From the NCBI GenBank assembly GCA_039808765.1, contig JBDHTQ010000004.1, positions 74,287 through 138,286 of the forward strand: a stretch of DNA of 64,000 nucleotides, given 5' to 3'. Shown piece after piece: positions 6,107 to 17,208 of the stretch. This DNA is from Bdellovibrionales bacterium (GTDB taxonomy: Bacteria > Pseudomonadota > Alphaproteobacteria > UBA2400). Each line of letters starts with the position of its first letter. The stretch's first letter is position 1. The position numbers and the translations under genes are program-made. Below the pieces are notes generated by a model that was not told the DNA's origin, ran no database searches, and worked only from the letters and a program-made list of their open reading frames with translations.

Positions 6107-6994
6107 TTGGCACGTATCGCATTTATTGGTTTAGGGCAAATGGGCCTTCCTATGGCGACCAACCTTGTGATGGTGGGGCATCATGTGGTGGGGCATGATT
6201 TGCGTGCTTTACAAATGAGTCGTTTGCAAAATGCTGGTGGCTATGTGGCTGAATCAGCAGCTGAAGCAATTAAAGACGCTAATTTTGTCATTACCTGTCT
6301 TCCTGATTTGACAGCTCTGCGCAGTTTATGGATTCAAGATCCAGACGTGCCGAAAACCGTCAACAAAGGCACGATTATTATTGATTGCTCGGCAATCGGT
6401 GTTGACGAAGCGCGCACAATTGCCAGCTATTTAGAAGCCTCGGATCTTTCTGCATTGGATGCAGCGCCGATTGGTGACCCGCGCGATGCCCGTGCCCGCA
6501 TGTTGACCTTTGCGGTGGGTGGGGGGCTTGCGGCTTTTGCTGAAGCTAAGAGTATTTTGGAAGATATGGGCGAGCGTGTTATTCATGTTGGCAAGGCGGG
6601 GATGGGGATTACCACGGCTTTGTGTGTTCAGCTCATGTCGGTGATTAATTTGGTGGGGGTTGCCGAATCTTTTGCTCTGGCTGAACGTATGGGGCTGGGC
6701 GTCGAAAAACTTTTTGAGGTAGCAGCGTTATCGCCTGGTGCATCGTGGGCCTTGGCTGAACGTTGCCCGCAATCGGGGTTAGTACCCCATGCACCAAGTA
6801 ATAATCTTTACGAAGAAGGTTTAGCTGCTGCTCAAATTCTAAAGCAGCTACGCCAGCTGGACCATTCAATTCAAAAGGTTGAAGCGCGGGCACACTTGAC
6901 GCAAGGGGCATTAGCTTTATATAGCGAGTTTTGTCTAACCAAGGACCCCCAGCTTGATTTTTCTGCCATAATTCAGCTCTTGCGTCGGCGTTAG
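6107..6994 (+). CDS. NAD(P)-binding beta-hydroxyacid dehydrogenase family protein (3-hydroxyisobutyrate / 6-phosphogluconate dehydrogenase-like)
   Basis: The N-terminal Rossmann motif IAFIGLGQMGLPMATNL is typical of HIBADH-family enzymes. Length 295 aa; apparent TTG start. Confidence 0.6.
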   Translation: MARIAFIGLGQMGLPMATNLVMVGHHVVGHDLRALQMSRLQNAGGYVAESAAEAIKDANFVITCLPDLTALRSLWIQDPDVPKTVNKGTIIIDCSAIGVDEARTIASYLEASDLSALDAAPIGDPRDARARMLTFAVGGGLAAFAEAKSILEDMGERVIHVGKAGMGITTALCVQLMSVINLVGVAESFALAERMGLGVEKLFEVAALSPGASWALAERCPQSGLVPHAPSNNLYEEGLAAAQILKQLRQLDHSIQKVEARAHLTQGALALYSEFCLTKDPQLDFSAIIQLLRRR

Positions 6995-7130
6995 CGCCTG
7001 ATCTTAATAGATGTTAAGGGGTTGTCATGTATGATAGGCTCAGCTATCAATGGTTATTGATAAGCATCACACATGAAGGGGGGCCATTTTACGGCCTGTC
7101 TCTGGCATAAATTATGTAGAGGTTAAGCAC

Positions 7131-7791: not shown

Positions 7792-9486
7792 ATGAATCGT
7801 TTAAGCGCAACCTGTGCTGCTGGTTTGTTTTCTTTGGTTTTGGTTGCCGGGATAACAATTCAGCCGGTTTATTCGTATGCTGAATCAGCGATACAAACAG
7901 CCTTGGTTTCACCGAGTGTGCAAGTTGGTGATGCGATTCTTGATCGTGCAGCGCTTCAGGCTGTTTACGGCACCCGTAACTATGAACCTCTGTGGATTGA
8001 AAAGGGAAAGATACGCGATCGCGCAAAGACAATTATTGCGGTACTAACCAATGCGCGCGTGCATGGGTTAAATACAGAAGATTATAATTTATCGCTAATT
8101 CTTAGGCGTGTAGATCAAAAACAATCAACAGCAGATCTCGTGGTGCTTGATCTATTGCTGACCGACGGCTTGATGCGTTATGCCAGTGATGTGCGGGGCG
8201 GGCGAGTTAATCCGCGCCAACTCGCGGGTGAGAAATACATTCGTCAGCAGATCATTGATCCGGTTGAAATTGTTTTGCAAGCGGCAGAAGCACCTGATTT
8301 AGAAGGTTTTTTGGCGCAGCTACCACCCCATACGGCACTTTATCAATCTCAGCTCAAGGCACTTGAAGCGTTGCGTGCCATGCCCGATTGGGTGCCTATC
8401 GCTACGGGTCCTAAACTGCAAAAGGGACAAACATCGTCACGCGTGGAAACATTGCGCCAGCGGTTGTTCGCCACTGGCGAGCTTATGGATGCAGACGTGA
8501 CTGGCACGACGTATGACCAAAAGCTTTTTGACGCTGTGAAAGCCTATCAAATCCGTAATGGATTGGATGCTGACGGTGTGATTGGCGCGAGCACATTGAC
8601 AATGCTCAATATTCCGCGTTCAGAGCGCATTGATCAGGTTATTGCCAATATGGAGCGCCAACGCTGGTTGCCGCAAAGTTTGGGGGGCCGCCACGTTTTG
8701 GTCAATGTGCCTGCGTATGAACTTTTTGCGGTTACAAATAATAATGTCGATTTGCACATGAAGACGATTGTTGGTCGCCCTGATCGTCCAACGCCATTGT
8801 TTGCTGATCTGATTCGCTACGTCGAGTTTAATCCGACGTGGGGTGTTCCTCCGACGATTGCTAAAAAAGATGTGCTCCCCCATCTAAGACAGGATCCCGG
8901 TTATGCGCTTGAGCACAAAAATGTGCGTATTTATCGCGATGGAGTGGAAATTGATCCTTATTCAGTCGATTGGAATGCAGCCAACATTGGGCGCTACACT
9001 CTGCGTGCGCCCCCTGGTCCGCGCAATCCTTTGGGACAGGTCAAGTTTCTTTTCCCTAACCGTTTTGATGTTTATCTCCATGATACGTCAGAGCGCAATA
9101 AATTTGCTTTAACCGAGCGTGACTTAAGCTCGGGGTGTGTTCGTGTAAATGATCCGGCGGCCCTGTCCAATTGGCTGCTCAGCGATAAGGATGGTTGGAG
9201 TGATGAAAAGCGTGTCAGTATTCTGAAAAGCGAAAGACAGACCCGCCTTTCAATGAATAAGCCTGTGCCGGTATGGTTAACCTACACAACTGCGTGGATG
9301 GATGGTGATGGCCATCCTGTCTTCCGACCGGATATCTACAGTTATGACGATGACTTGGTTCACGCCATTGAAGCCACAACTCAGCGCAAGCGTTGGTTGG
9401 TAGTATCGATGGTTCGGGCTGAAAACGACGAGGCTCCGGTTGATACGCTTGCTGATGATAAAGAGGTTCCGCAAGCAGCTCCATAG
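7792..9486 (+). CDS. L,D-transpeptidase (YkuD/ErfK family) with a peptidoglycan-binding domain
   Basis: Signal peptide present. A PG_binding_1-like segment (VKAYQIRNGLDADGVIGASTL) is followed by a YkuD catalytic domain with the HDTSERNKF...SSGCVRVND His/Cys motif. This is a YcbB-like architecture. Confidence 0.7.
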   Translation: MNRLSATCAAGLFSLVLVAGITIQPVYSYAESAIQTALVSPSVQVGDAILDRAALQAVYGTRNYEPLWIEKGKIRDRAKTIIAVLTNARVHGLNTEDYNLSLILRRVDQKQSTADLVVLDLLLTDGLMRYASDVRGGRVNPRQLAGEKYIRQQIIDPVEIVLQAAEAPDLEGFLAQLPPHTALYQSQLKALEALRAMPDWVPIATGPKLQKGQTSSRVETLRQRLFATGELMDADVTGTTYDQKLFDAVKAYQIRNGLDADGVIGASTLTMLNIPRSERIDQVIANMERQRWLPQSLGGRHVLVNVPAYELFAVTNNNVDLHMKTIVGRPDRPTPLFADLIRYVEFNPTWGVPPTIAKKDVLPHLRQDPGYALEHKNVRIYRDGVEIDPYSVDWNAANIGRYTLRAPPGPRNPLGQVKFLFPNRFDVYLHDTSERNKFALTERDLSSGCVRVNDPAALSNWLLSDKDGWSDEKRVSILKSERQTRLSMNKPVPVWLTYTTAWMDGDGHPVFRPDIYSYDDDLVHAIEATTQRKRWLVVSMVRAENDEAPVDTLADDKEVPQAAP

Positions 9487-9797
9487 CCTTTCGTCAAGTT
9501 CTTTATTTTAACCCCCTCTTTTGCACAAAAAATCTATCTGTACCAAAGAGTTATCCTTTTTTGTTAAAGGAGACTCTACTGGTACAGATTTTTTTTAATT
9601 GAGTAATAAGAAAAACACTCGTACAAGAAGGGCGTGCCGCGATCTGAAAGAATGGCATCTGTAAAGAAAATCAAAGTCGGGCAAAGACTGTAAAGGACAT
9701 GATGAAGTATTCCAATCCTTACCAACTTTGCGCGTTGTCTTTAGCGGAGTAAATGAATGCTTCCGCTCTCCTTCAAGAGGACTATACAGGAACACTC

Positions 9798-10430
9798 ATG
9801 ATTGAAAGTTTGAAATTGACTGACAGTTCGTCTGTCTCTCGGCGTGGTTTCTTGCAATTTGGTCTTAAAACCGCTGCCAGTGTTGCGCTTGTTTCATCAA
9901 CCCTAACTGCAGGTCTTCTTCCCACTGAAGCCGCAATGGCTGCAGAGTTTTCCGCCGGAATGGAGCGGATTGCTGGTCAAATCGGTGGTAATCGCCGCCT
10001 TTCGTTTAAAAACACGCATACGGGGGAACGTCTGGTCACAACGTTTTGGCGTGGTGGTGGGTATGACCAGTCGGCGTTGGACGAAATTAATTACATCATG
10101 CGCGATTTTCGCTCAGGTGATCTTCATCTCATCAATACGGGCCTGCTGAACCTGCTTACAATTTTACGTCACAAGCTGGGTACGGATATTCCTGTTAATA
10201 TCATTTCAGGTTATCGCTCACCTAAGACCAATGCCATGTTGCGCTCAAGCAGTGATGGTGTGGCGCGCCGTAGTTTCCATATGCAAGGTATGGCCATTGA
10301 CGTGCGGATGCCGGGAATTGCCACCTCTGGGATTGCTAATACAGCTCGCGGACTGGGCTTAGGTGGCGTGGGCTATTATAGCGATAGCGATTTTGTCCAT
10401 GTTGATGTTGGACCAAAGCGTACATGGTAG
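9798..10430 (+). CDS. DUF882/YcbK-like peptidase M15 family protein with a Tat-type signal
   Basis: Twin-arginine signal SRRGFLQFGLKTAASVAL. The M15-like metal-binding region is ISGYRSPKTN...RSFHMQGMAIDVRM...FVHVDV. The ycbB-ycbK style pairing with the upstream L,D-transpeptidase supports the call. Confidence 0.6.
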   Translation: MIESLKLTDSSSVSRRGFLQFGLKTAASVALVSSTLTAGLLPTEAAMAAEFSAGMERIAGQIGGNRRLSFKNTHTGERLVTTFWRGGGYDQSALDEINYIMRDFRSGDLHLINTGLLNLLTILRHKLGTDIPVNIISGYRSPKTNAMLRSSSDGVARRSFHMQGMAIDVRMPGIATSGIANTARGLGLGGVGYYSDSDFVHVDVGPKRTW

Positions 10431-10496: not shown

Positions 10497-11411
10497 TTAA
10501 GGCAAGGGGATTTCTGAAACAGGGGTGCCTTTTCGGCGAATAATCACCATCCAACCTGCAAGGCAAACACACAAAAGCCCCAAGCATATGCGCAGCGTAA
10601 GCGGCTCATGGAACATAAATGTTCCATAAACAAGCATCCAGAAAATTTGTGTGTATTGTAATGACGAAAAGTGTGGTGCAGTCATATGCTTTAACGCCAA
10701 GTAATAGCTGCAATTCGCGGTACCGACGACGAGTCCAATCGTCATAACCCAAAACATTTGTAATGATGTAATCGGCTGCCAGTCACCCATGGCGGCAAAA
10801 TTCATGATGACCTGCATTGTGGCGACGGGAATCAGTAAGACTGCGCCTGTATCACTGCGGCCTGCTCGACGCATGATAATGAGCGAAAGAGCGCCAAAAA
10901 ACCCCACGCCAAAACCTGTCAAGTGGGCTACAGAAAATGTGCGGATATGGGGGTTCATCGCGATCAGAACCCCGAAAAACCCGATTAAGACAGCCGCAAT
11001 TTGTCGGGGCCGTAAATATTCTTTGAGAAAAATTGCGCTCAAAACCAAGGCCCACAGCGGGGTTGTAAAAAACAGGGTGTAACACTCGGCCAAAGGCAGT
11101 CGGGTAAGTGTGTAATTAACGCATGCGACATCGGCTACGGCACAAAAGCAATAAAACAACAACCGATATGGGTGTGCGGTGTGTAATCCATTCCACTCGC
11201 GGTTGACGTGAGTCATCCATAAAATGGGAATAAGGGTGAATAATTCATACAAGAAGGCTAACTGAAATTGCCCCAGCCCTTGCATCATGAGATATCGCCC
11301 TAACGCATCCGCTGTACTGTAGCCAAAAAAGGTAAACAGCGCAAAGCCCAGGCTTAAAAGCGGCAGACGGAGCGTAAGGAGAGCCATAGAAAAACCAAGT
11401 ACAGCTAACAA
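10497..11411 (-). CDS. EamA/DMT-family transporter (10 TM-type permease). The true start may be downstream, near 11387.
   Basis: Highly hydrophobic throughout, with a duplicated 5-TM organisation and the Gly/Pro-rich loops typical of drug/metabolite transporter (EamA) proteins. Confidence 0.5.
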   Translation of the reverse strand: MLAVLGFSMALLTLRLPLLSLGFALFTFFGYSTADALGRYLMMQGLGQFQLAFLYELFTLIPILWMTHVNREWNGLHTAHPYRLLFYCFCAVADVACVNYTLTRLPLAECYTLFFTTPLWALVLSAIFLKEYLRPRQIAAVLIGFFGVLIAMNPHIRTFSVAHLTGFGVGFFGALSLIIMRRAGRSDTGAVLLIPVATMQVIMNFAAMGDWQPITSLQMFWVMTIGLVVGTANCSYYLALKHMTAPHFSSLQYTQIFWMLVYGTFMFHEPLTLRICLGLLCVCLAGWMVIIRRKGTPVSEIPLP

Positions 11412-11589: not shown

Positions 11590-12165
11590 CTAATCCATTT
11601 TCTGCATGCTTGTTTTAAGGCGATTTATGCCTTCCCATGCAGATCTCTTGGTTATGCCTTCGGGAAATTTGCCTGTCTCAATCATTACCATTAAATCTCG
11701 TAGGTTCAATTTTTCTGTTTTAACACGTGCTAGCGTTTTCTTACCTGTACGAGGTGATATACTTTGTTTGAATGCAATCAGCTCAATCCGCTTCTCCGAA
11801 CCCTTTCTACCTTGGCAAATACGACCGAGCTTATAAAATCTCTCGCTAACTGAACAATTTTTCTCCACCGCGGTCGTTTGTGAACGCTTTCGCAAACGGT
11901 TAAGCATGGTCGTGGCTGCGGCTTTATTGATGCCGCGAGGCAGCTGTTCCGTCTCGATCATGTGGCTCAAAGCATTCATTGTAACTGTTGCGGTGGTACA
12001 AATCCTTTTCTCTTTTGTGCCATCAGCACCATGGGGTTGATGGCACATAAAAATCAAAGTTACTTTCGGTTGATCACAATCTGAAGTGGGGCCTATCACT
12101 TTTCCCATGCGGGCCATAAAACCGGGAGGATTATCGTTATTTTTAAATGTAGTGTGTGTATTCAT
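11590..12165 (-). CDS. Hypothetical protein (basic, possible wHTH)
   Basis: 191-aa ORF with no recognisable catalytic motif. It lies in a variable AT-richer patch between the EamA gene and ctrA. Confidence 0.3.
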   Translation of the reverse strand: MNTHTTFKNNDNPPGFMARMGKVIGPTSDCDQPKVTLIFMCHQPHGADGTKEKRICTTATVTMNALSHMIETEQLPRGINKAAATTMLNRLRKRSQTTAVEKNCSVSERFYKLGRICQGRKGSEKRIELIAFKQSISPRTGKKTLARVKTEKLNLRDLMVMIETGKFPEGITKRSAWEGINRLKTSMQKMD

Positions 12166-12301
12166 AAATAGCTCGTCATCATCGGGGTTGAGCGGGATTA
12201 CTCAAGGTTGCTTTTATTCAAAACTAAGTGAAAAAAGCAACAAAAAAAACCCCCGAGGAACAAACCTCGGGGTAGACGTAACGTAATGTGTTGATTTGTG
12301 A

Positions 12302-13414
12302 TTAAGCTGCCTGCTGTAAATTAAGCTTAAGACCTGCTTGCTGCATAAGGGTAAGTGCGTCACTTGTGTTTTTTTCTTCCGTTGCTTCAAAGGCAGAAGT
12401 GTTTTTGCCATTCAAACTGATCGGACAGTCTTGCACGATGGATTGAAGTGTTTGCGAGTCGGTTGCTGACTGTAATCTGCTGCCCAACAAGAATGTGGAG
12501 ACAGCCTGCGAATCACTTAACGAAGCTCCCGAGAAGCGGCACAGCTCTGCCAGTCCCTCGATTGGACCCGCCGACAAATGAACACCATTGACTCCTTGTG
12601 AGACCTCTTCAAGCCCAAGTTGTTCTTTTTGTTCAAGGAACAAACGGCGCAGACTGCCAGCATTGGCTTTTTCTGGATTTGTCGTGCCGATCAAATCGTT
12701 GCGCGCTACACTCCAGTCCGTGTTGGTCACGAGACGAAACGTGACGATGGAGCGGCCCGCCTGAACAAAATGCTCCAATTGACGGGGGTGAAACGCATTG
12801 ATGAGGTAGTGGGTTTGCCCATCCCATTTTACAGGAATGCAGTATGTGCCGCCCGCAAGTTTGGTGATTTGGGCATTTTGGCAAAGCAAGTCCAACGATT
12901 CTGCATTCATGAACGGAAATTTTCGCAAAAATTCAAAAGACCCCAGAGGCTTGGCTTCTTCTACGGTCATACCAAATTTTTCTTTGAAGGTGTTTTTAGC
13001 GGTGTCAGACAATGAAGCGAGCGCATTGTTGCTTAAGCGATTGATCACACCATAGTGAGACGCAATGGCTCCACTTTCCTTCATGTATTGAGCGCCAAGC
13101 AAGTTAACTTCGAGAATTGTCATGCCAAACTTTTCAAGGCTTGAAAAAACGAGATCAAGAACGGCAGAGAGGTTGGTTTTGCCGTTGGAAGGTTTGGTGA
13201 TTTCAGGTTTGATGAAAAAAAGCATTTCATTTTTATACGACTGCGGGGAAATGCCTGAGGATTGGTAAAGCGATACGCGACCGGTCGCGGTTGTTTGCGC
13301 GGCTGTTATCGCATTGATGATTTTGCTTTTGAGTTCTTGCACGATATATCTCCCAACATGCGATTTTCTTTGGCAAAAGGGGTTCCGTTGCCTGCGCTGT
13401 TTTAGCCTTACCAA
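12302..13414 (-). CDS. Atypical expanded nucleoside-diphosphate-kinase-fold protein. A more likely start is at 13225 (MLFFIKPE).
   Basis: NDK-like blocks are present: FFIKPE (NDK N-terminal strand), IGTTNPEKANAGSLRRLF (NDK Kpn-loop/GATNP region), and NGVHLSAGPIEGLAELCRF (the NDK catalytic His, NG[T/V]H.S). Non-NDK insertions of about 100 aa and a roughly 90-aa C-terminal extension bring the total to 300+ aa, versus about 140 aa for canonical Ndk. Confidence 0.45.
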   Translation of the reverse strand: MVRLKQRRQRNPFCQRKSHVGRYIVQELKSKIINAITAAQTTATGRVSLYQSSGISPQSYKNEMLFFIKPEITKPSNGKTNLSAVLDLVFSSLEKFGMTILEVNLLGAQYMKESGAIASHYGVINRLSNNALASLSDTAKNTFKEKFGMTVEEAKPLGSFEFLRKFPFMNAESLDLLCQNAQITKLAGGTYCIPVKWDGQTHYLINAFHPRQLEHFVQAGRSIVTFRLVTNTDWSVARNDLIGTTNPEKANAGSLRRLFLEQKEQLGLEEVSQGVNGVHLSAGPIEGLAELCRFSGASLSDSQAVSTFLLGSRLQSATDSQTLQSIVQDCPISLNGKNTSAFEATEEKNTSDALTLMQQAGLKLNLQQAA

Positions 13415-13557: not shown

Positions 13558-14076
13558 ATGGATATTAAACAGCGTAATCGCTATATGGATGGAATATGTT
13601 ATAGTTGGCTCGCCGGAGGTGTGCTTGGAGCAGGTTCGGTCTTGGCGAACTTTTGTTGTCTTGCCCAGCAGCTTGTTGGTCAAAGGGACCCTCCTGTGGG
13701 CGTATCGTTTGCGCTTATGGCGCTGGGGGGGGCGTGTCTTTACTCAGCCTACGCGCTTTGCTTTCTTCCCAAACGATTAAGAGAGGCCAAAATTGTTAAT
13801 ATTTTGCCTGATCCTTCAGCATGCAAATCTCTCCAACGCTATACATTTGGCTATCTGGCTGCCGCAGTCACTGTAGCTGCTCTCAGTGGCTGTAATTATG
13901 CGACAACCGGTCGTTTCTGGAATATATTTGACGCGCCGACCACTCCATTTCGTCATTTAGGGAATAATATTACACCATCCCTAATACCTGAACTGTCTAG
14001 GGTACTGTTCGCGAATAACGCCGATGGGGTCGATCCGAAAAAAACAATTGTTGCACGCTTGCCGTCAATGTCGTAG
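13558..14076 (+). CDS. Hypothetical membrane protein
   Basis: 172 aa with two or three hydrophobic helices. No family recognised. Confidence 0.3.
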   Translation: MDIKQRNRYMDGICYSWLAGGVLGAGSVLANFCCLAQQLVGQRDPPVGVSFALMALGGACLYSAYALCFLPKRLREAKIVNILPDPSACKSLQRYTFGYLAAAVTVAALSGCNYATTGRFWNIFDAPTTPFRHLGNNITPSLIPELSRVLFANNADGVDPKKTIVARLPSMS

Positions 14077-14138: not shown

Positions 14139-14726
14139 ATGTTGGATACAGAGGGGCTGGCTGATTCGGGCAGCGGAGAATTAACGGCGAAGCCAGAAAA
14201 AAATGACTTAAGCCCTGGGTTTTCAATTGGCATGGCGGCCATAATGGCCGTTCTTTTTTTTACTAACTTTCTGAGCACTGCATTGGGATCGGTGGGAGTT
14301 TTTGCAAATTACCTTGCTCATAGCTTTACCCCGTTGAGTGGAGTGGCTAGCGCGCTGGGCTTGATCGGTAGCTCTGGTCTTGCAGTACATGCGGTGAGAA
14401 CGGCATTTGAGCCGGGGCTAAGAATAGAAGAGAAAGAACCCAAAATTCTAAGGAAAAAAATGATAAGGCGCGTTGCAGTGGTTGCTTTTGCAACGACCGG
14501 ACTTGCATTAGCTAACGGTATTAACATGGTTGAAGGGCATAGAGCGACATTATTCAATAACAAAACGCAACCTGTGATTCCGGCACCTGAGCGCTGTCCT
14601 CCAACAACATCAGTGGTGCCTCCTTCGTACGCTTTTTCAGTTTTTTTGAGTAGGAGTCGGCCTGTTGTATTGGTTCCTTCTGGGTTATTACAAAGACCGA
14701 CATCAGCAAGTCTGACATTGGCATGA
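14139..14726 (+). CDS. Hypothetical membrane protein
   Basis: 195 aa with several TM helices (MAAIMAVLFFTNFL..., GLIGSSGLAV..., VAVVAFATTGLALA). No family recognised. Confidence 0.3.
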   Translation: MLDTEGLADSGSGELTAKPEKNDLSPGFSIGMAAIMAVLFFTNFLSTALGSVGVFANYLAHSFTPLSGVASALGLIGSSGLAVHAVRTAFEPGLRIEEKEPKILRKKMIRRVAVVAFATTGLALANGINMVEGHRATLFNNKTQPVIPAPERCPPTTSVVPPSYAFSVFLSRSRPVVLVPSGLLQRPTSASLTLA

Positions 14727-14935: not shown

Positions 14936-15655
14936 TTATTCAACCATTGCCTGTGAGCCAACGGCAGCTGGTGCTTCTCCGATTGGATCGCGCAAAACGT
15001 AACCGCGGCCCCATACTGTCTCGATATAGCTATCAGTATTGGTGGCTACGGCCAACTTCTTGCGCAACTTGCAAACAAACACGTCGATAATTTTCAATTC
15101 TGGCTCGTCCATTCCGCCATAAAGGTGATTCAAAAACATCTCTTTGGTGAGCGTTGTGCCTTTACGCAGTGAGAGAAGCTCCAGAATGCCATATTCCTTC
15201 CCTGTTAAGTGCAATGGGCGCTCGTCCACCGTAACGGTGCGGGTATCAAGATTGACGGTTAAGCGACCTGTCTTGATTACGCTGTCAGAGTGACCTTTCG
15301 AGCGACGCACAATGGCCTGAATGCGGGCGATAAGTTCGCGCTTGTCAAAAGGTTTGGTCAAATAATCATCGGCGCCAAAGCCTAAGCCCTTGATTTTGTG
15401 ATCTAGTTCTGTGAGGCCCGACAAGATGAGGATCGGTGTGTTCACGCGTGCTGACCGCAAACGACGCAAAACTTCGTAGCCATCAATATCAGGGAGCATC
15501 AGGTCAAGCAAAATGATGTCATAATCATACAGCTTCCCGATTTCCAGTCCATCTTCACCCAGATCTGTCGTGTCGACGATAAATCCCTCTGAATGTAGCA
15601 TTAGCTCAATGCTTTTAGCCGTCGAGCTATCATCTTCAACAAGCAGAACACGCAT
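14936..15655 (-). CDS. ctrA: Cell-cycle response regulator CtrA (OmpR family). The start is trimmed to MRVLLVEDD.
   Basis: Near-identical blocks to Caulobacter/Rhizobiales CtrA: [100 protein letters not shown]. Confidence 0.85.
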
Positions 15656-15864
15656 CTTAACCCCTCCTTGATCTGGGTTACTCTCCCTAACCATTCCGCA
15701 TGCTTTAAAGCAGAGGTCAGGATACATTAACTATCCCTAATATTTCCCAAATTAGTTAACAAAATCTCACCAAGGAAGGCAAGAATAAAATTTTAACCTT
15801 CATTAAAGCGGTTTTGAGCAGATTAAGACTAGGCTAAAAGAATGAATTCGCTTAGCATTCTGTT

Positions 15865-17208
15865 ATGGGAAGTGATCTAGAAACTTTTTTGGCGAACGTT
15901 AATGAAATTCCAGAACAGCAGTTTTTTGGTCGCGTTACGGCGGTTCAGGGATTGATGGTTGAGGTCATTGGGGTCGAAAAACAACTTACGCTGGGTGGTC
16001 GCTGTTATATTGTTAATAGTGAAAACAAGAGAATTCCATGCGAAGTTGTGGGGTTTCGTAAAAAACATGCGCTTTTGATGAGTTACGGGGCTTTGGAGGG
16101 TGTCGGTTTAAATTGCAAAGTTGAGGTATCTTCCAGTCGACCTGCGCTGCATCCAACGGCACTCTGGTTGGGGCGTGTGGTCAATGCATTGGGTGAGCCG
16201 ATTGATGGCAAAGGGCCATTACCGATTGGTGGCATTGCGGCGCCTTTTCGTGCAGCTCCACCGCCCGCCAATTTGCGGCAACGTGTGGCTGGTAAGGTTG
16301 ATTTGGGTGTAAAAGCCCTTAATACCTTTGTCACGCTTTGTCGGGGGCAGCGGATGGGGATTTTTGCGGCCTCAGGTGTTGGCAAATCAGTTTTGATGTC
16401 GATGTTGGCGCGTTATACCAGTTCCGACGTTAATGTCATCGGACTGGTGGGCGAACGTGGCCGCGAAGTGCAGGAGTTTATAAAGGACACATTGGGTGAA
16501 GAGGGGTTAAAACGCTCTATCATTGTGGTGGCAACTTCGGATGAACCTGCGTTGATGCGGCGGCAGGCTGCCTACACCACCCTTGCCCTTGCTGAGTATT
16601 TTCGTGATCAAGGCCAGCATGTGCTGTGCATGATTGATTCGGTTACCCGCTTTGCCATGGCCCAGCGCGAAATTGGCCTTTCAGCGGGTGAGCCACCCAC
16701 AACAAAAGGCTATCCACCGACGGTTTTTAGTGAGCTTCCCAAGCTGTTAGAGCGTGCTGGCCCTGGTGTTGATGGCAACAATGAGGGCGGGGGCGCCATA
16801 ACGGGCCTCTTTACTGTTTTGGTGGAAGGTGACGACCATGACGAACCGATTGCTGACGCCGTTCGCGGTATTCTTGATGGGCATATCGTGTTGGAGCGCT
16901 CGATTGGGGAGCGCGGGCGATACCCTGCGATTAACATTCTTCGCTCTGTTTCCCGCACGATGCCGATGTGCAATACCGATCAAGAAAATGCATTAATTAC
17001 GCGCGCCCGACGGCTTATATCCACCTATGACGATATGGCTGAAATGATCCGGCTAGGTGCGTATCGTATGGGGGCGGATCCGCTGGTTGATGAAGCAATT
17101 GCTTATCGCGAGCCTCTTGAGCGTTTTTTGTCGCAAAAGCCGGGTGAGCATTTTTCATTGGAACAGGGCTACACACAATTGGCTAATGTTCTTCAGCGTC
17201 AAGGCTGA
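15865..17208 (+). CDS. fliI: Flagellum-specific ATP synthase FliI
   Basis: 447 aa T3SS-type ATPase. Walker A GVGKSVLMSMLAR, Walker B LCMIDSVTRFAMAQREI, and the C-terminal helical domain are present. Divergent from ctrA, as in many Rhizobiales. Confidence 0.85.
   Translation: MGSDLETFLANVNEIPEQQFFGRVTAVQGLMVEVIGVEKQLTLGGRCYIVNSENKRIPCEVVGFRKKHALLMSYGALEGVGLNCKVEVSSSRPALHPTALWLGRVVNALGEPIDGKGPLPIGGIAAPFRAAPPPANLRQRVAGKVDLGVKALNTFVTLCRGQRMGIFAASGVGKSVLMSMLARYTSSDVNVIGLVGERGREVQEFIKDTLGEEGLKRSIIVVATSDEPALMRRQAAYTTLALAEYFRDQGQHVLCMIDSVTRFAMAQREIGLSAGEPPTTKGYPPTVFSELPKLLERAGPGVDGNNEGGGAITGLFTVLVEGDDHDEPIADAVRGILDGHIVLERSIGERGRYPAINILRSVSRTMPMCNTDQENALITRARRLISTYDDMAEMIRLGAYRMGADPLVDEAIAYREPLERFLSQKPGEHFSLEQGYTQLANVLQRQG

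Follow-up and report, generated by a model that had tools for sequence, protein, structure and literature searches.

An expanded nucleoside diphosphate kinase-fold protein of 346 residues in a Bdellovibrionales contig and the family to which it belongs

The window analysed here is a stretch of 64,000 nucleotides of a genome assembled from a Bdellovibrionales bacterium (contig JBDHTQ010000004.1, positions 74,287 to 138,286), and the subject of this work is one gene on its minus strand, which encodes an expanded protein of the nucleoside diphosphate kinase (NDK) fold. The maximal open reading frame (ORF) occupies positions 12302..13414 of the window (minus strand) and would specify 370 aa from a TTG codon at 13414. 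However, the real start is likely the GTG codon at 13342 rather than this TTG, because a GGGAG motif at 13354-13350 precedes it with a 7-nt spacer, the N-termini of the homologues coincide with it, and the resulting 346-aa product is 100% identical to a database protein (P0001). The homologues never reach into the upstream stretch of the maximal ORF, which is probably an untranslated leader. Residues are therefore numbered for the 346-aa protein; the numbering of the 370-aa ORF is obtained by adding 24. The gene and its parts, the latter as delimited with an AlphaFold2 (AF2) model, are the following:

12302..13342, minus strand: codons for the 346 residues of the expanded NDK-fold protein and its stop, GTG start at 13342-13340
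13343..13414, minus strand: upstream stretch of the maximal ORF, holding the GGGAG ribosome-binding site
13232..13342, minus strand: family-specific N-terminal element, residues 1-37, with a helix (2-17) and a strand (22-27) in the AF2 model
13052..13231, minus strand: N-terminal half of the NDK core (38-97), with β1 carrying FIKPE (K45), α1, β2 and αA, which ends in H96-Y97
12794..13051, minus strand: inserted subdomain between αA and α2, 86 aa, residues 98-183
12530..12793, minus strand: C-terminal half of the NDK core (184-271)
12305..12529, minus strand: family-specific C-terminal domain, residues 272-346, 75 aa, with helices and a β-hairpin
12241..12272, minus strand: terminator-like hairpin CCCCGAGG-TTTGTT-CCTCGGGG, with a stem of 8 pairs, of which 7 are G-C, and a T-run behind it

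The hairpin (12272-12241) begins 30 nt past the stop codon, where a terminator of this gene should be, and is by far the strongest of the five terminator-like sites found in the region, where 3.5 were expected, so that such sites as a class are not enriched. On the other side, the 5' intergenic region of the gene is shared with a divergent ORF. Because of this hairpin and the shared intergenic region, the gene looks like a monocistronic, stand-alone transcription unit.

The three sequence blocks that are characteristic of NDK had been named in the original prediction, and they are indeed present in the order found in NDK: FIKPE at 13202-13216, GTTNP at 12674-12688 and NGVHLS at 12572-12589. 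When the protein is searched as a single sequence, the resemblance is faint. The Pfam NDK model (PF00334) gives an E-value of 0.033 (14.5 bits against a cut-off of 27, ORF residues 231-264), the NCBIfam ndk models give E-values of 0.003-0.18 (11.9-17.3 bits against cut-offs of 155-255, so that the thresholds are not reached) and NDK chains of the PDB give E-values of 0.18-1.6. The signal becomes clearer with an alignment of 32 sequences (A1), by which we define the expanded NDK-like family of ~340 aa. In an hmmsearch of PDB sequences with the A1 profile, NDKs make up 18 of the 19 matches at E ≤ 1, the best being 1nhk with an E-value of 0.0076. Comparison with E. coli Ndk by hhalign in local mode reached a probability of 88% (E 2.7e-6), matching residues 199-272 to Ndk residues 72-134 and placing NGVHLSAGP over NGTHGSDS. 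A weak alternative alignment of residues 60-98 to Ndk 18-56 is consistent with the order of the elements; local mode was chosen, as the global mode misaligned the N-terminal half against Ndk. The profile comparison and a confident AF2 model agree on the NDK fold, with a βαββαβ ferredoxin-like core, an αA-α2 hairpin, a Kpn loop and α4. Taken together, the 346-aa protein is a member of the NDK-fold superfamily and its resemblance is beyond chance, as had been predicted for an expanded NDK-fold protein with a catalytic histidine. Identity to NDKs is ~20%, and with 346 aa against ~143 aa the protein is 2.4 times as long as Ndk, in accordance with the predicted more than twofold size.

The additional length was originally ascribed to large insertions and a long tail. 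That there is extra mass is correct, but insertions and a tail do not account for all of it: it comprises a 37-aa N-terminal element, one 86-aa insertion, ~10 additional Kpn-loop residues and a folded C-terminal domain of 75 aa. Residues 1-37 are absent from canonical NDK, and the eukaryotic tandem modules described below begin later, at about position 33 of the profile. The 86-aa insertion consists of a helical bundle and a three-stranded β element, contains the invariant residues I100, N101, F119, G134, K161 and G165-T166-Y167, and takes the place of the short αA-α2 connection. In ordinary NDKs, the cleft for the nucleotide is bordered on one side by this connection, and the base protrudes there. 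The second half of the core (residues 184-271) holds F184-H185 together with α2, β3, α3 (R214), an extended Kpn loop (T221, R232) that is ~10 residues longer than in Ndk, the strand β4 with NGVHLS (N252, the catalytic H255 and S257) and α4 (E262, E266). The C-terminal domain has the invariant pair T321-E322, part of a 'TEE' motif. Profiles of the insertion and of the C-terminal domain matched PDB sequences at noise level only, giving no relative among solved structures, and the expanded module as a whole was not found in any solved structure by a profile search of PDB sequences and a fold search.

All catalytic and nucleotide-binding positions of NDK are invariant in the A1 alignment, and we counted their conservation more widely over 316 modules from 273 family proteins. 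The catalytic motif N-x-x-H-x-S is present as N252-G-V-H255-L-S257, accompanied by E266, and these residues are kept in 314 (N252), 309 (H255), 314 (S257) and 306 (E266) of the modules. Similar numbers hold for the remaining positions: Y97 is kept in 308 modules, R214 in 299, T221 in 289 and R232 in 313, while K45 is conserved in all 291 modules in which the position aligns. The Ndk equivalents of the residues that bind phosphates and sugar are presumably K11, Y52, R88, T94 and R105 (approximate E. coli/human numbering). R214, T221 and R232 are placed via significant alignments; the order of motifs and secondary-structure elements would make K45 the counterpart of K11 and Y97 that of Y52. Such conservation is the pattern to be expected of an active enzyme and, as far as sequence can tell, a strong argument against a pseudo-enzyme, which we disfavour because the catalytic residues are near-invariant across so many modules.

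The original prediction had regarded the protein as diverged. This does not hold if it is meant as idiosyncratic: the window protein has every invariant column of A1, including the family markers HYGxIN, KLxGGxY, GFHPxQ, W210 and TEE, and judged by these columns it is typical of its family, whose ~340-aa proteins are well conserved. A word-indexed search of a 90%-clustered database returned 631 homologues at E ≤ 1e-3; the best 120 of these are ~338-345 aa long, 43-66% identical and mostly cover 88-94% of the 370-aa query (a minority ~80%). An exhaustive search of 1.84 billion cluster representatives gave 1493 matches at E ≤ 1e-3; 1002 of them remain when the limit is set to 1e-10, and 439, counted as 50%-identity clusters, when it is set to 1e-30. 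Among 185,579 species-representative genomes, 182 loci with a relative were found. The carriers are mostly Bacteroidota (Mucilaginibacter, Puia, Chitinophagaceae, Cytophagales and many metagenome-assembled genomes (MAGs) of Bacteroidales), and further members occur in Sericytochromatia, in Pyrinomonadaceae and other Acidobacteriota, in Bdellovibrionales, in Desulfobacteraceae and in a few Alphaproteobacteria. Chiefly, these are free-living Bacteroidota, Acidobacteriota and Sericytochromatia of soil and water. More distant yet clear members lie on plasmids, namely pST7-2 of Bacillus thuringiensis (E 2e-85 with the family profile) and a plasmid of Parageobacillus caldoxylosilyticus (5e-52). In a neighbour-joining tree, the window protein and its five closest homologues, which are 52-66% identical to it, group together in a clade of Alphaproteobacteria. 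The source annotations of the homologues read 'hypothetical protein' and occasionally 'nucleoside-diphosphate kinase'. No phage members were detected in a scan of IMG/VR, by tblastn against INPHARED or in a fold search of BFVD, and neither the NDK-like protein nor its neighbours in the window matched the defence models of PADLOC-DB; with no matches in these four collections, we rejected a phage or defence origin. A two-module bacterial relative (P0215, 816 aa; locus L091, 7544-9994) starts with a signal-peptide-like sequence, MNKTLILSAALAGITAFAATTQ. No other member hints at export, and the genes around this one are housekeeping genes of unrelated function.

The top matches of the family profile are giant eukaryotic proteins from kinetoplastids, euglenids and dinoflagellates, in which 3-8 expanded modules are arranged in tandem:

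Bodo saltans CUF98075.1 (P0125): 2366 aa, 8 modules, with a C-terminal EF-hand pair
Trypanosoma theileri XP_028879250.1 (P0144): 2516 aa, 7 modules
The euglenid Jenningsia (P0124): 4 modules
The dinoflagellate Gymnodinium smaydae (P0167): 3 modules

The catalytic histidine is retained in most of these eukaryotic modules. By their summed scores the multi-module relatives, and only these, pass the Pfam NDK threshold. A literature search found nothing on these giant proteins.

To see in which company the bacterial genes occur, we clustered the neighbouring genes of 80 loci. Most neighbours are unrelated or lineage-specific, e.g. SiaC in Bacteroidales, Sua5 in Cytophagales, DHH in some Bacteroidia and DapA-like genes in Sericytochromatia; as the associations are lineage-restricted, a conserved family-wide operon was rejected. 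A recurring partner in a minority of loci is c14, a 209-aa protein without a Pfam match, which lies directly upstream on the same strand (gaps of 11-82 bp) in 5 of the 80 loci and adjoins the NDK-like gene divergently in a sixth (L070). These six loci come from Bernardetia, Saprospiraceae, Chitinophaga, further Bacteroidota and two Acidobacteriota. Moreover, a 555-aa protein (P0128) is an in-frame fusion of c14 and the NDK-like module. The c14 profile found nothing in the PDB by sequence; after modelling, its fold was recognised as what appears to be a minimal protein-kinase-like kinase and not a P-loop deoxynucleoside monophosphate (dNMP) kinase. Other genes accompany the pair: a divergent ThyA-like gene is present in the clusters of L034, L056, L020 and L089, a Ham1/ITPase gene and an AAA_28 kinase gene in that of L020 (Bernardetia), CYTH-domain proteins are encoded in those of L089 and L034, and NUDIX genes in L070 and L085. 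Variably, the c14-type clusters also hold genes for a GcvP-like pyridoxal-phosphate enzyme, an N6/N4 DNA methylase and a generic radical-SAM enzyme. For the radical-SAM neighbour of the fusion protein, identity as a viperin was considered and discarded, since the pVip match is weak (E 1e-13) and generic radical-SAM families score better. The c14-linked members are scattered among the stand-alone members in the neighbour-joining tree and therefore do not form a separate subfamily. In this minority of loci, the recurring picture is that of an NDK-type enzyme teamed with first- and second-step kinases and with nucleotide-modifying or -hydrolysing enzymes.

Some of the loci have features of their own. 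In a Saprospiraceae MAG (L056), paralogous ORFs at 6740-7054 and 11965-12297 (104 and 110 aa, 66% identical) flank a five-gene cluster of c14, the NDK-like gene, the ThyA-like gene, c85 and c86, which hints that the cluster is a cassette. The two Bacillaceae plasmids share a cluster (L084, pST7-2, CP016196.1, 33231-50124; L085, Parageobacillus, NZ_CP040554.1, 8946-25794) that differs from the c14-type clusters but resembles them in flavour. It has genes for MetK, myo-inositol-1-phosphate synthase, two SDR-family proteins, the NDK-like protein, a small P-loop kinase, an APH-family kinase, NTP_transf_5, CYTH, a phosphoesterase, HAD, and SurE or NUDIX, and by its content it seems to serve the biosynthesis of a product of nucleoside or cyclitol type. 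A SiaC-family gene of 124 aa (PF09345, E 1.4e-40) is located within ~2.3 kb downstream in 19 of the 80 loci, all of Bacteroidales type (among them L028, L046, L053, L055, L059, L060, L062, L068, L071, L072 and L074). It abuts the NDK-like gene (within 60 bp) in 12 of those 19 loci, in convergent orientation except for L045.

The surroundings of the gene in the window are as predicted in so far as it lies between an EamA gene and ctrA, among ORFs without a family match:

9753-10430: DUF882 gene
10497-11411, minus strand: EamA transporter gene
11590-12165, minus strand: 191-aa ORF without family match, directly downstream of the NDK-like gene
13558-14076, plus strand: 172-aa ORF without family match
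14139-14726, plus strand: 195-aa ORF without family match
14936-15727, minus strand: ctrA
15865-17208, plus strand: fliI

The 191-aa ORF contains an internal duplication (residues 58-92 against ~150-184, 40% identity, E 1e-6) with the repeat motif MIETxxxPxGIxK...NRL[RK]. At the locus of the 66%-identical homologue (L082), a 186-aa ORF (9310-9870) takes the corresponding position; homology of the two ORFs was considered and is not established, with an E-value of only 0.02. The 172-aa and 195-aa ORFs look hydrophobic and membrane-like by eye, have no match in Pfam, NCBIfam or PADLOC, and their mutual similarity is insignificant (E 0.25). The context of the NDK-like gene differs in all five close alphaproteobacterial cases, i.e. 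the window and the following loci:

L082: SLAC1 and DUF882, the latter in partial synteny with the DUF882 gene of the window
L081: hybrid histidine kinase and HerA
L086: ribF
L087: fliD-fliS

In the last case (L087, 586-3918; L088, 920-2528), the gene of the 58%-identical homologue follows fliS on the same strand at a distance of 62 bp. With the other contexts differing, the vicinity of flagellar genes (fliD-fliS in L087, ctrA/fliI in the window) may be a coincidence. The predicted 'small variable region' is thus borne out by the differing neighbours in the close homologues; the base composition gives no such sign, with a G+C content of 47.1% for the gene, equal to the window mean of 47.3%.

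We consider it reasonably probable that the protein is an active histidine-dependent nucleotide phosphotransferase with a specialised acceptor. It is most likely cytoplasmic and catalytically competent. Following the NDK paradigm, a nucleoside triphosphate (NTP) donor would phosphorylate His255 (His279 in the 370-aa ORF), and from the phosphohistidine the phosphate would go in ping-pong fashion to a diphosphate that occupies the same cleft as acceptor. K45, Y97, R214, T221, R232 and N252 would hold the phosphates and the sugar, with S257 and E266 positioning the histidine. The insertion, the longer Kpn loop and the C-terminal domain, with their family-specific invariants K161, G165-T166-Y167, F184-H185 and T321-E322, might cover either the base and sugar or an interface between subunits; through these additions, an NDK of broad specificity would have become an enzyme that accepts few, probably non-canonical, substrates. 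The fusion and operon partners suggest that the family does the last step, from diphosphate to triphosphate, for a modified nucleotide. Because of the fusion and of the clusters with c14, ThyA-like, CYTH, NUDIX, Ham1 and P-loop kinase genes, we suggest that, at least in part of the organisms, a modified or non-canonical nucleotide serves as acceptor, being made by the ThyA-like enzyme and phosphorylated stepwise. The stand-alone copy in the window likely performs the same chemistry as the members in such clusters.

Several points weigh against this interpretation. The 346-aa protein alone stays below the Pfam NDK gathering score, the equivalences in the N-terminal half (K45, Y97 and F184) come from the order of motifs and secondary-structure elements and not from a significant alignment, and the position of the family-specific invariants at the active site is likewise deduced rather than read from the model coordinates. 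Furthermore, kinase/ThyA-type partners are found in just 6 of the 80 sampled loci (~8%), and tblastn of c14, the ThyA-like protein, c85, c86, the GcvP-like protein, Ham1 and AAA_28 against the 64-kb window gave no match below E 0.05. A stand-alone gene among unrelated neighbours is the usual situation in the family and holds for every close alphaproteobacterial relative, and the literature search returned no account of an expanded ~340-aa NDK-like family. With partners in so few loci and none in the window, the idea of a non-canonical acceptor is an extrapolation from a minority.

A bolder version, which we regard as unlikely at present, assigns to the module alone the terminal kinase step in a pathway, so far undescribed and spread by horizontal transfer, for C5-modified pyrimidine NTPs or other non-canonical NTPs. 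The product of the ThyA-like enzyme would pass to c14 or a P-loop kinase and then to the NDK-like enzyme, while CYTH, NUDIX and Ham1 proteins would consume or police what is made. Above the base, the insertion and the C-terminal domain would act as a lid that determines specificity. Stand-alone copies would work on this unusual nucleotide too, either in salvage or in its role as a signal, and the giant proteins of kinetoplastids, euglenids and dinoflagellates would be arrays of 3-8 copies of this specialised module.

A rival explanation would be a general-purpose Ndk, i.e. a larger isofunctional replacement of the canonical enzyme with broad specificity for nucleoside diphosphates, whose extra domains serve oligomerisation or stability only. 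A tblastn search with E. coli Ndk found no canonical ndk in the 64-kb window or the fetched loci, a result that is uninformative for whole genomes. Yet a rare family (182 loci among the species representatives) with a patchy distribution across phyla is not what such a replacement would lead us to expect, and one member is found on a B. thuringiensis plasmid within a specialised cluster. Bacillus chromosomes carry a canonical ndk. The family-specific invariants in the insertion and the C-terminal domain, together with the fusion to a dedicated kinase, speak for specialisation as well, and we take the replacement to be doubtful.

Little credence can be given to a role in signalling or motility, in which the protein would donate phosphate from its histidine to phosphoproteins of two-component or SiaC type, or would be associated with the flagellum in the manner of the eukaryotic axonemal proteins with several NDK domains. 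The nearby ctrA/fliI, fliD-fliS, hybrid kinase and SiaC genes as well as the occurrence of flagellate homologues would fit such a role, but the contexts are inconsistent and most carriers are non-flagellated Bacteroidota. Finally, a scaffold role as an inactive pseudo-kinase and a role as an NDK-like effector that is secreted to act on a host, both of which had been raised in the original prediction, are hardly credible, as the catalytic positions are strongly conserved (invariant in A1, kept in 289-314 of the 316 modules), there is no Sec-type signal peptide, residues 2-17 form a structured amphipathic helix that in the model is packed on the fold (pLDDT ~98), the family is dominated by free-living environmental bacteria, and no adjacent secretion-system genes were noticed in the ORF list and Pfam scan of the window. 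Non-classical secretion may be possible and lies beyond the reach of sequence.

Compared with known systems, our preferred reading of an active phosphotransferase with a specialised acceptor describes a protein that departs from canonical Ndk (EC 2.7.4.6; e.g. 3q83 of S. aureus, 1nhk of M. xanthus and 2hur of E. coli) in several respects. Canonical Ndk is a single domain of ~140-150 aa and near-universal, whereas the expanded family is a rare accessory gene that adds the N-terminal helix and strand, the 86-aa subdomain, ~10 residues in the Kpn loop and the 75-aa C-terminal domain, with invariants of their own. NDK of Pyrobaculum aerophilum (1xqi, 195 aa) also has insertions; these are much smaller, and no homology to the insertion or the C-terminal domain described here was detected. 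The eukaryotic axonemal multi-NDK proteins NME5, NME6, NME7, NME8 and CFAP67/FAP67 contain NDK domains of canonical size or DM10 domains, in contrast to the ~300-aa modules of the present family, which carry the insertion and the C-terminal domain and which in bacteria occur as single-module proteins. XRP2 has a C-terminal NDK-like domain that lacks the catalytic residues; unlike this inactive NDK fold, the expanded family keeps all of them and is not a comparable pseudo-enzyme.

A further parallel is offered by phages with modified DNA. Phage T4 supplies its modified nucleotide by a line of dCMP hydroxymethylase, dNMP kinase and NDK, and pathways of 5-hmdU/5-hmdC hypermodification are comparable. 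For the cluster-embedded relatives, in which a ThyA-family enzyme, kinases and the NDK-type enzyme occur with Ham1/NUDIX and a DNA methylase nearby, this is a functional analogy only: the family has no member in the phage collections, the partner is a protein-kinase-like mini-kinase, and the window gene has no such partners.

Fold and chemistry as such are already known, while the architecture of the protein, the family, the fusion to a mini-kinase and the tandem amplification in protists appear to be undescribed. The common view of NDK is that of a small housekeeping enzyme with no particular specificity. The family presented here keeps the entire catalytic machinery of NDK, yet it has gained a conserved subdomain at the base-binding mouth and a C-terminal domain. 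As to annotation, hundreds of 'hypothetical proteins' could be named at the level of the superfamily. The window gene itself is an ordinary stand-alone member in no special context and gives no pointer to virulence. If the additions confer acceptor specificity, the family would represent a substrate-specific NDK and offer a handle on pathways for modified nucleotides or nucleoside natural products.

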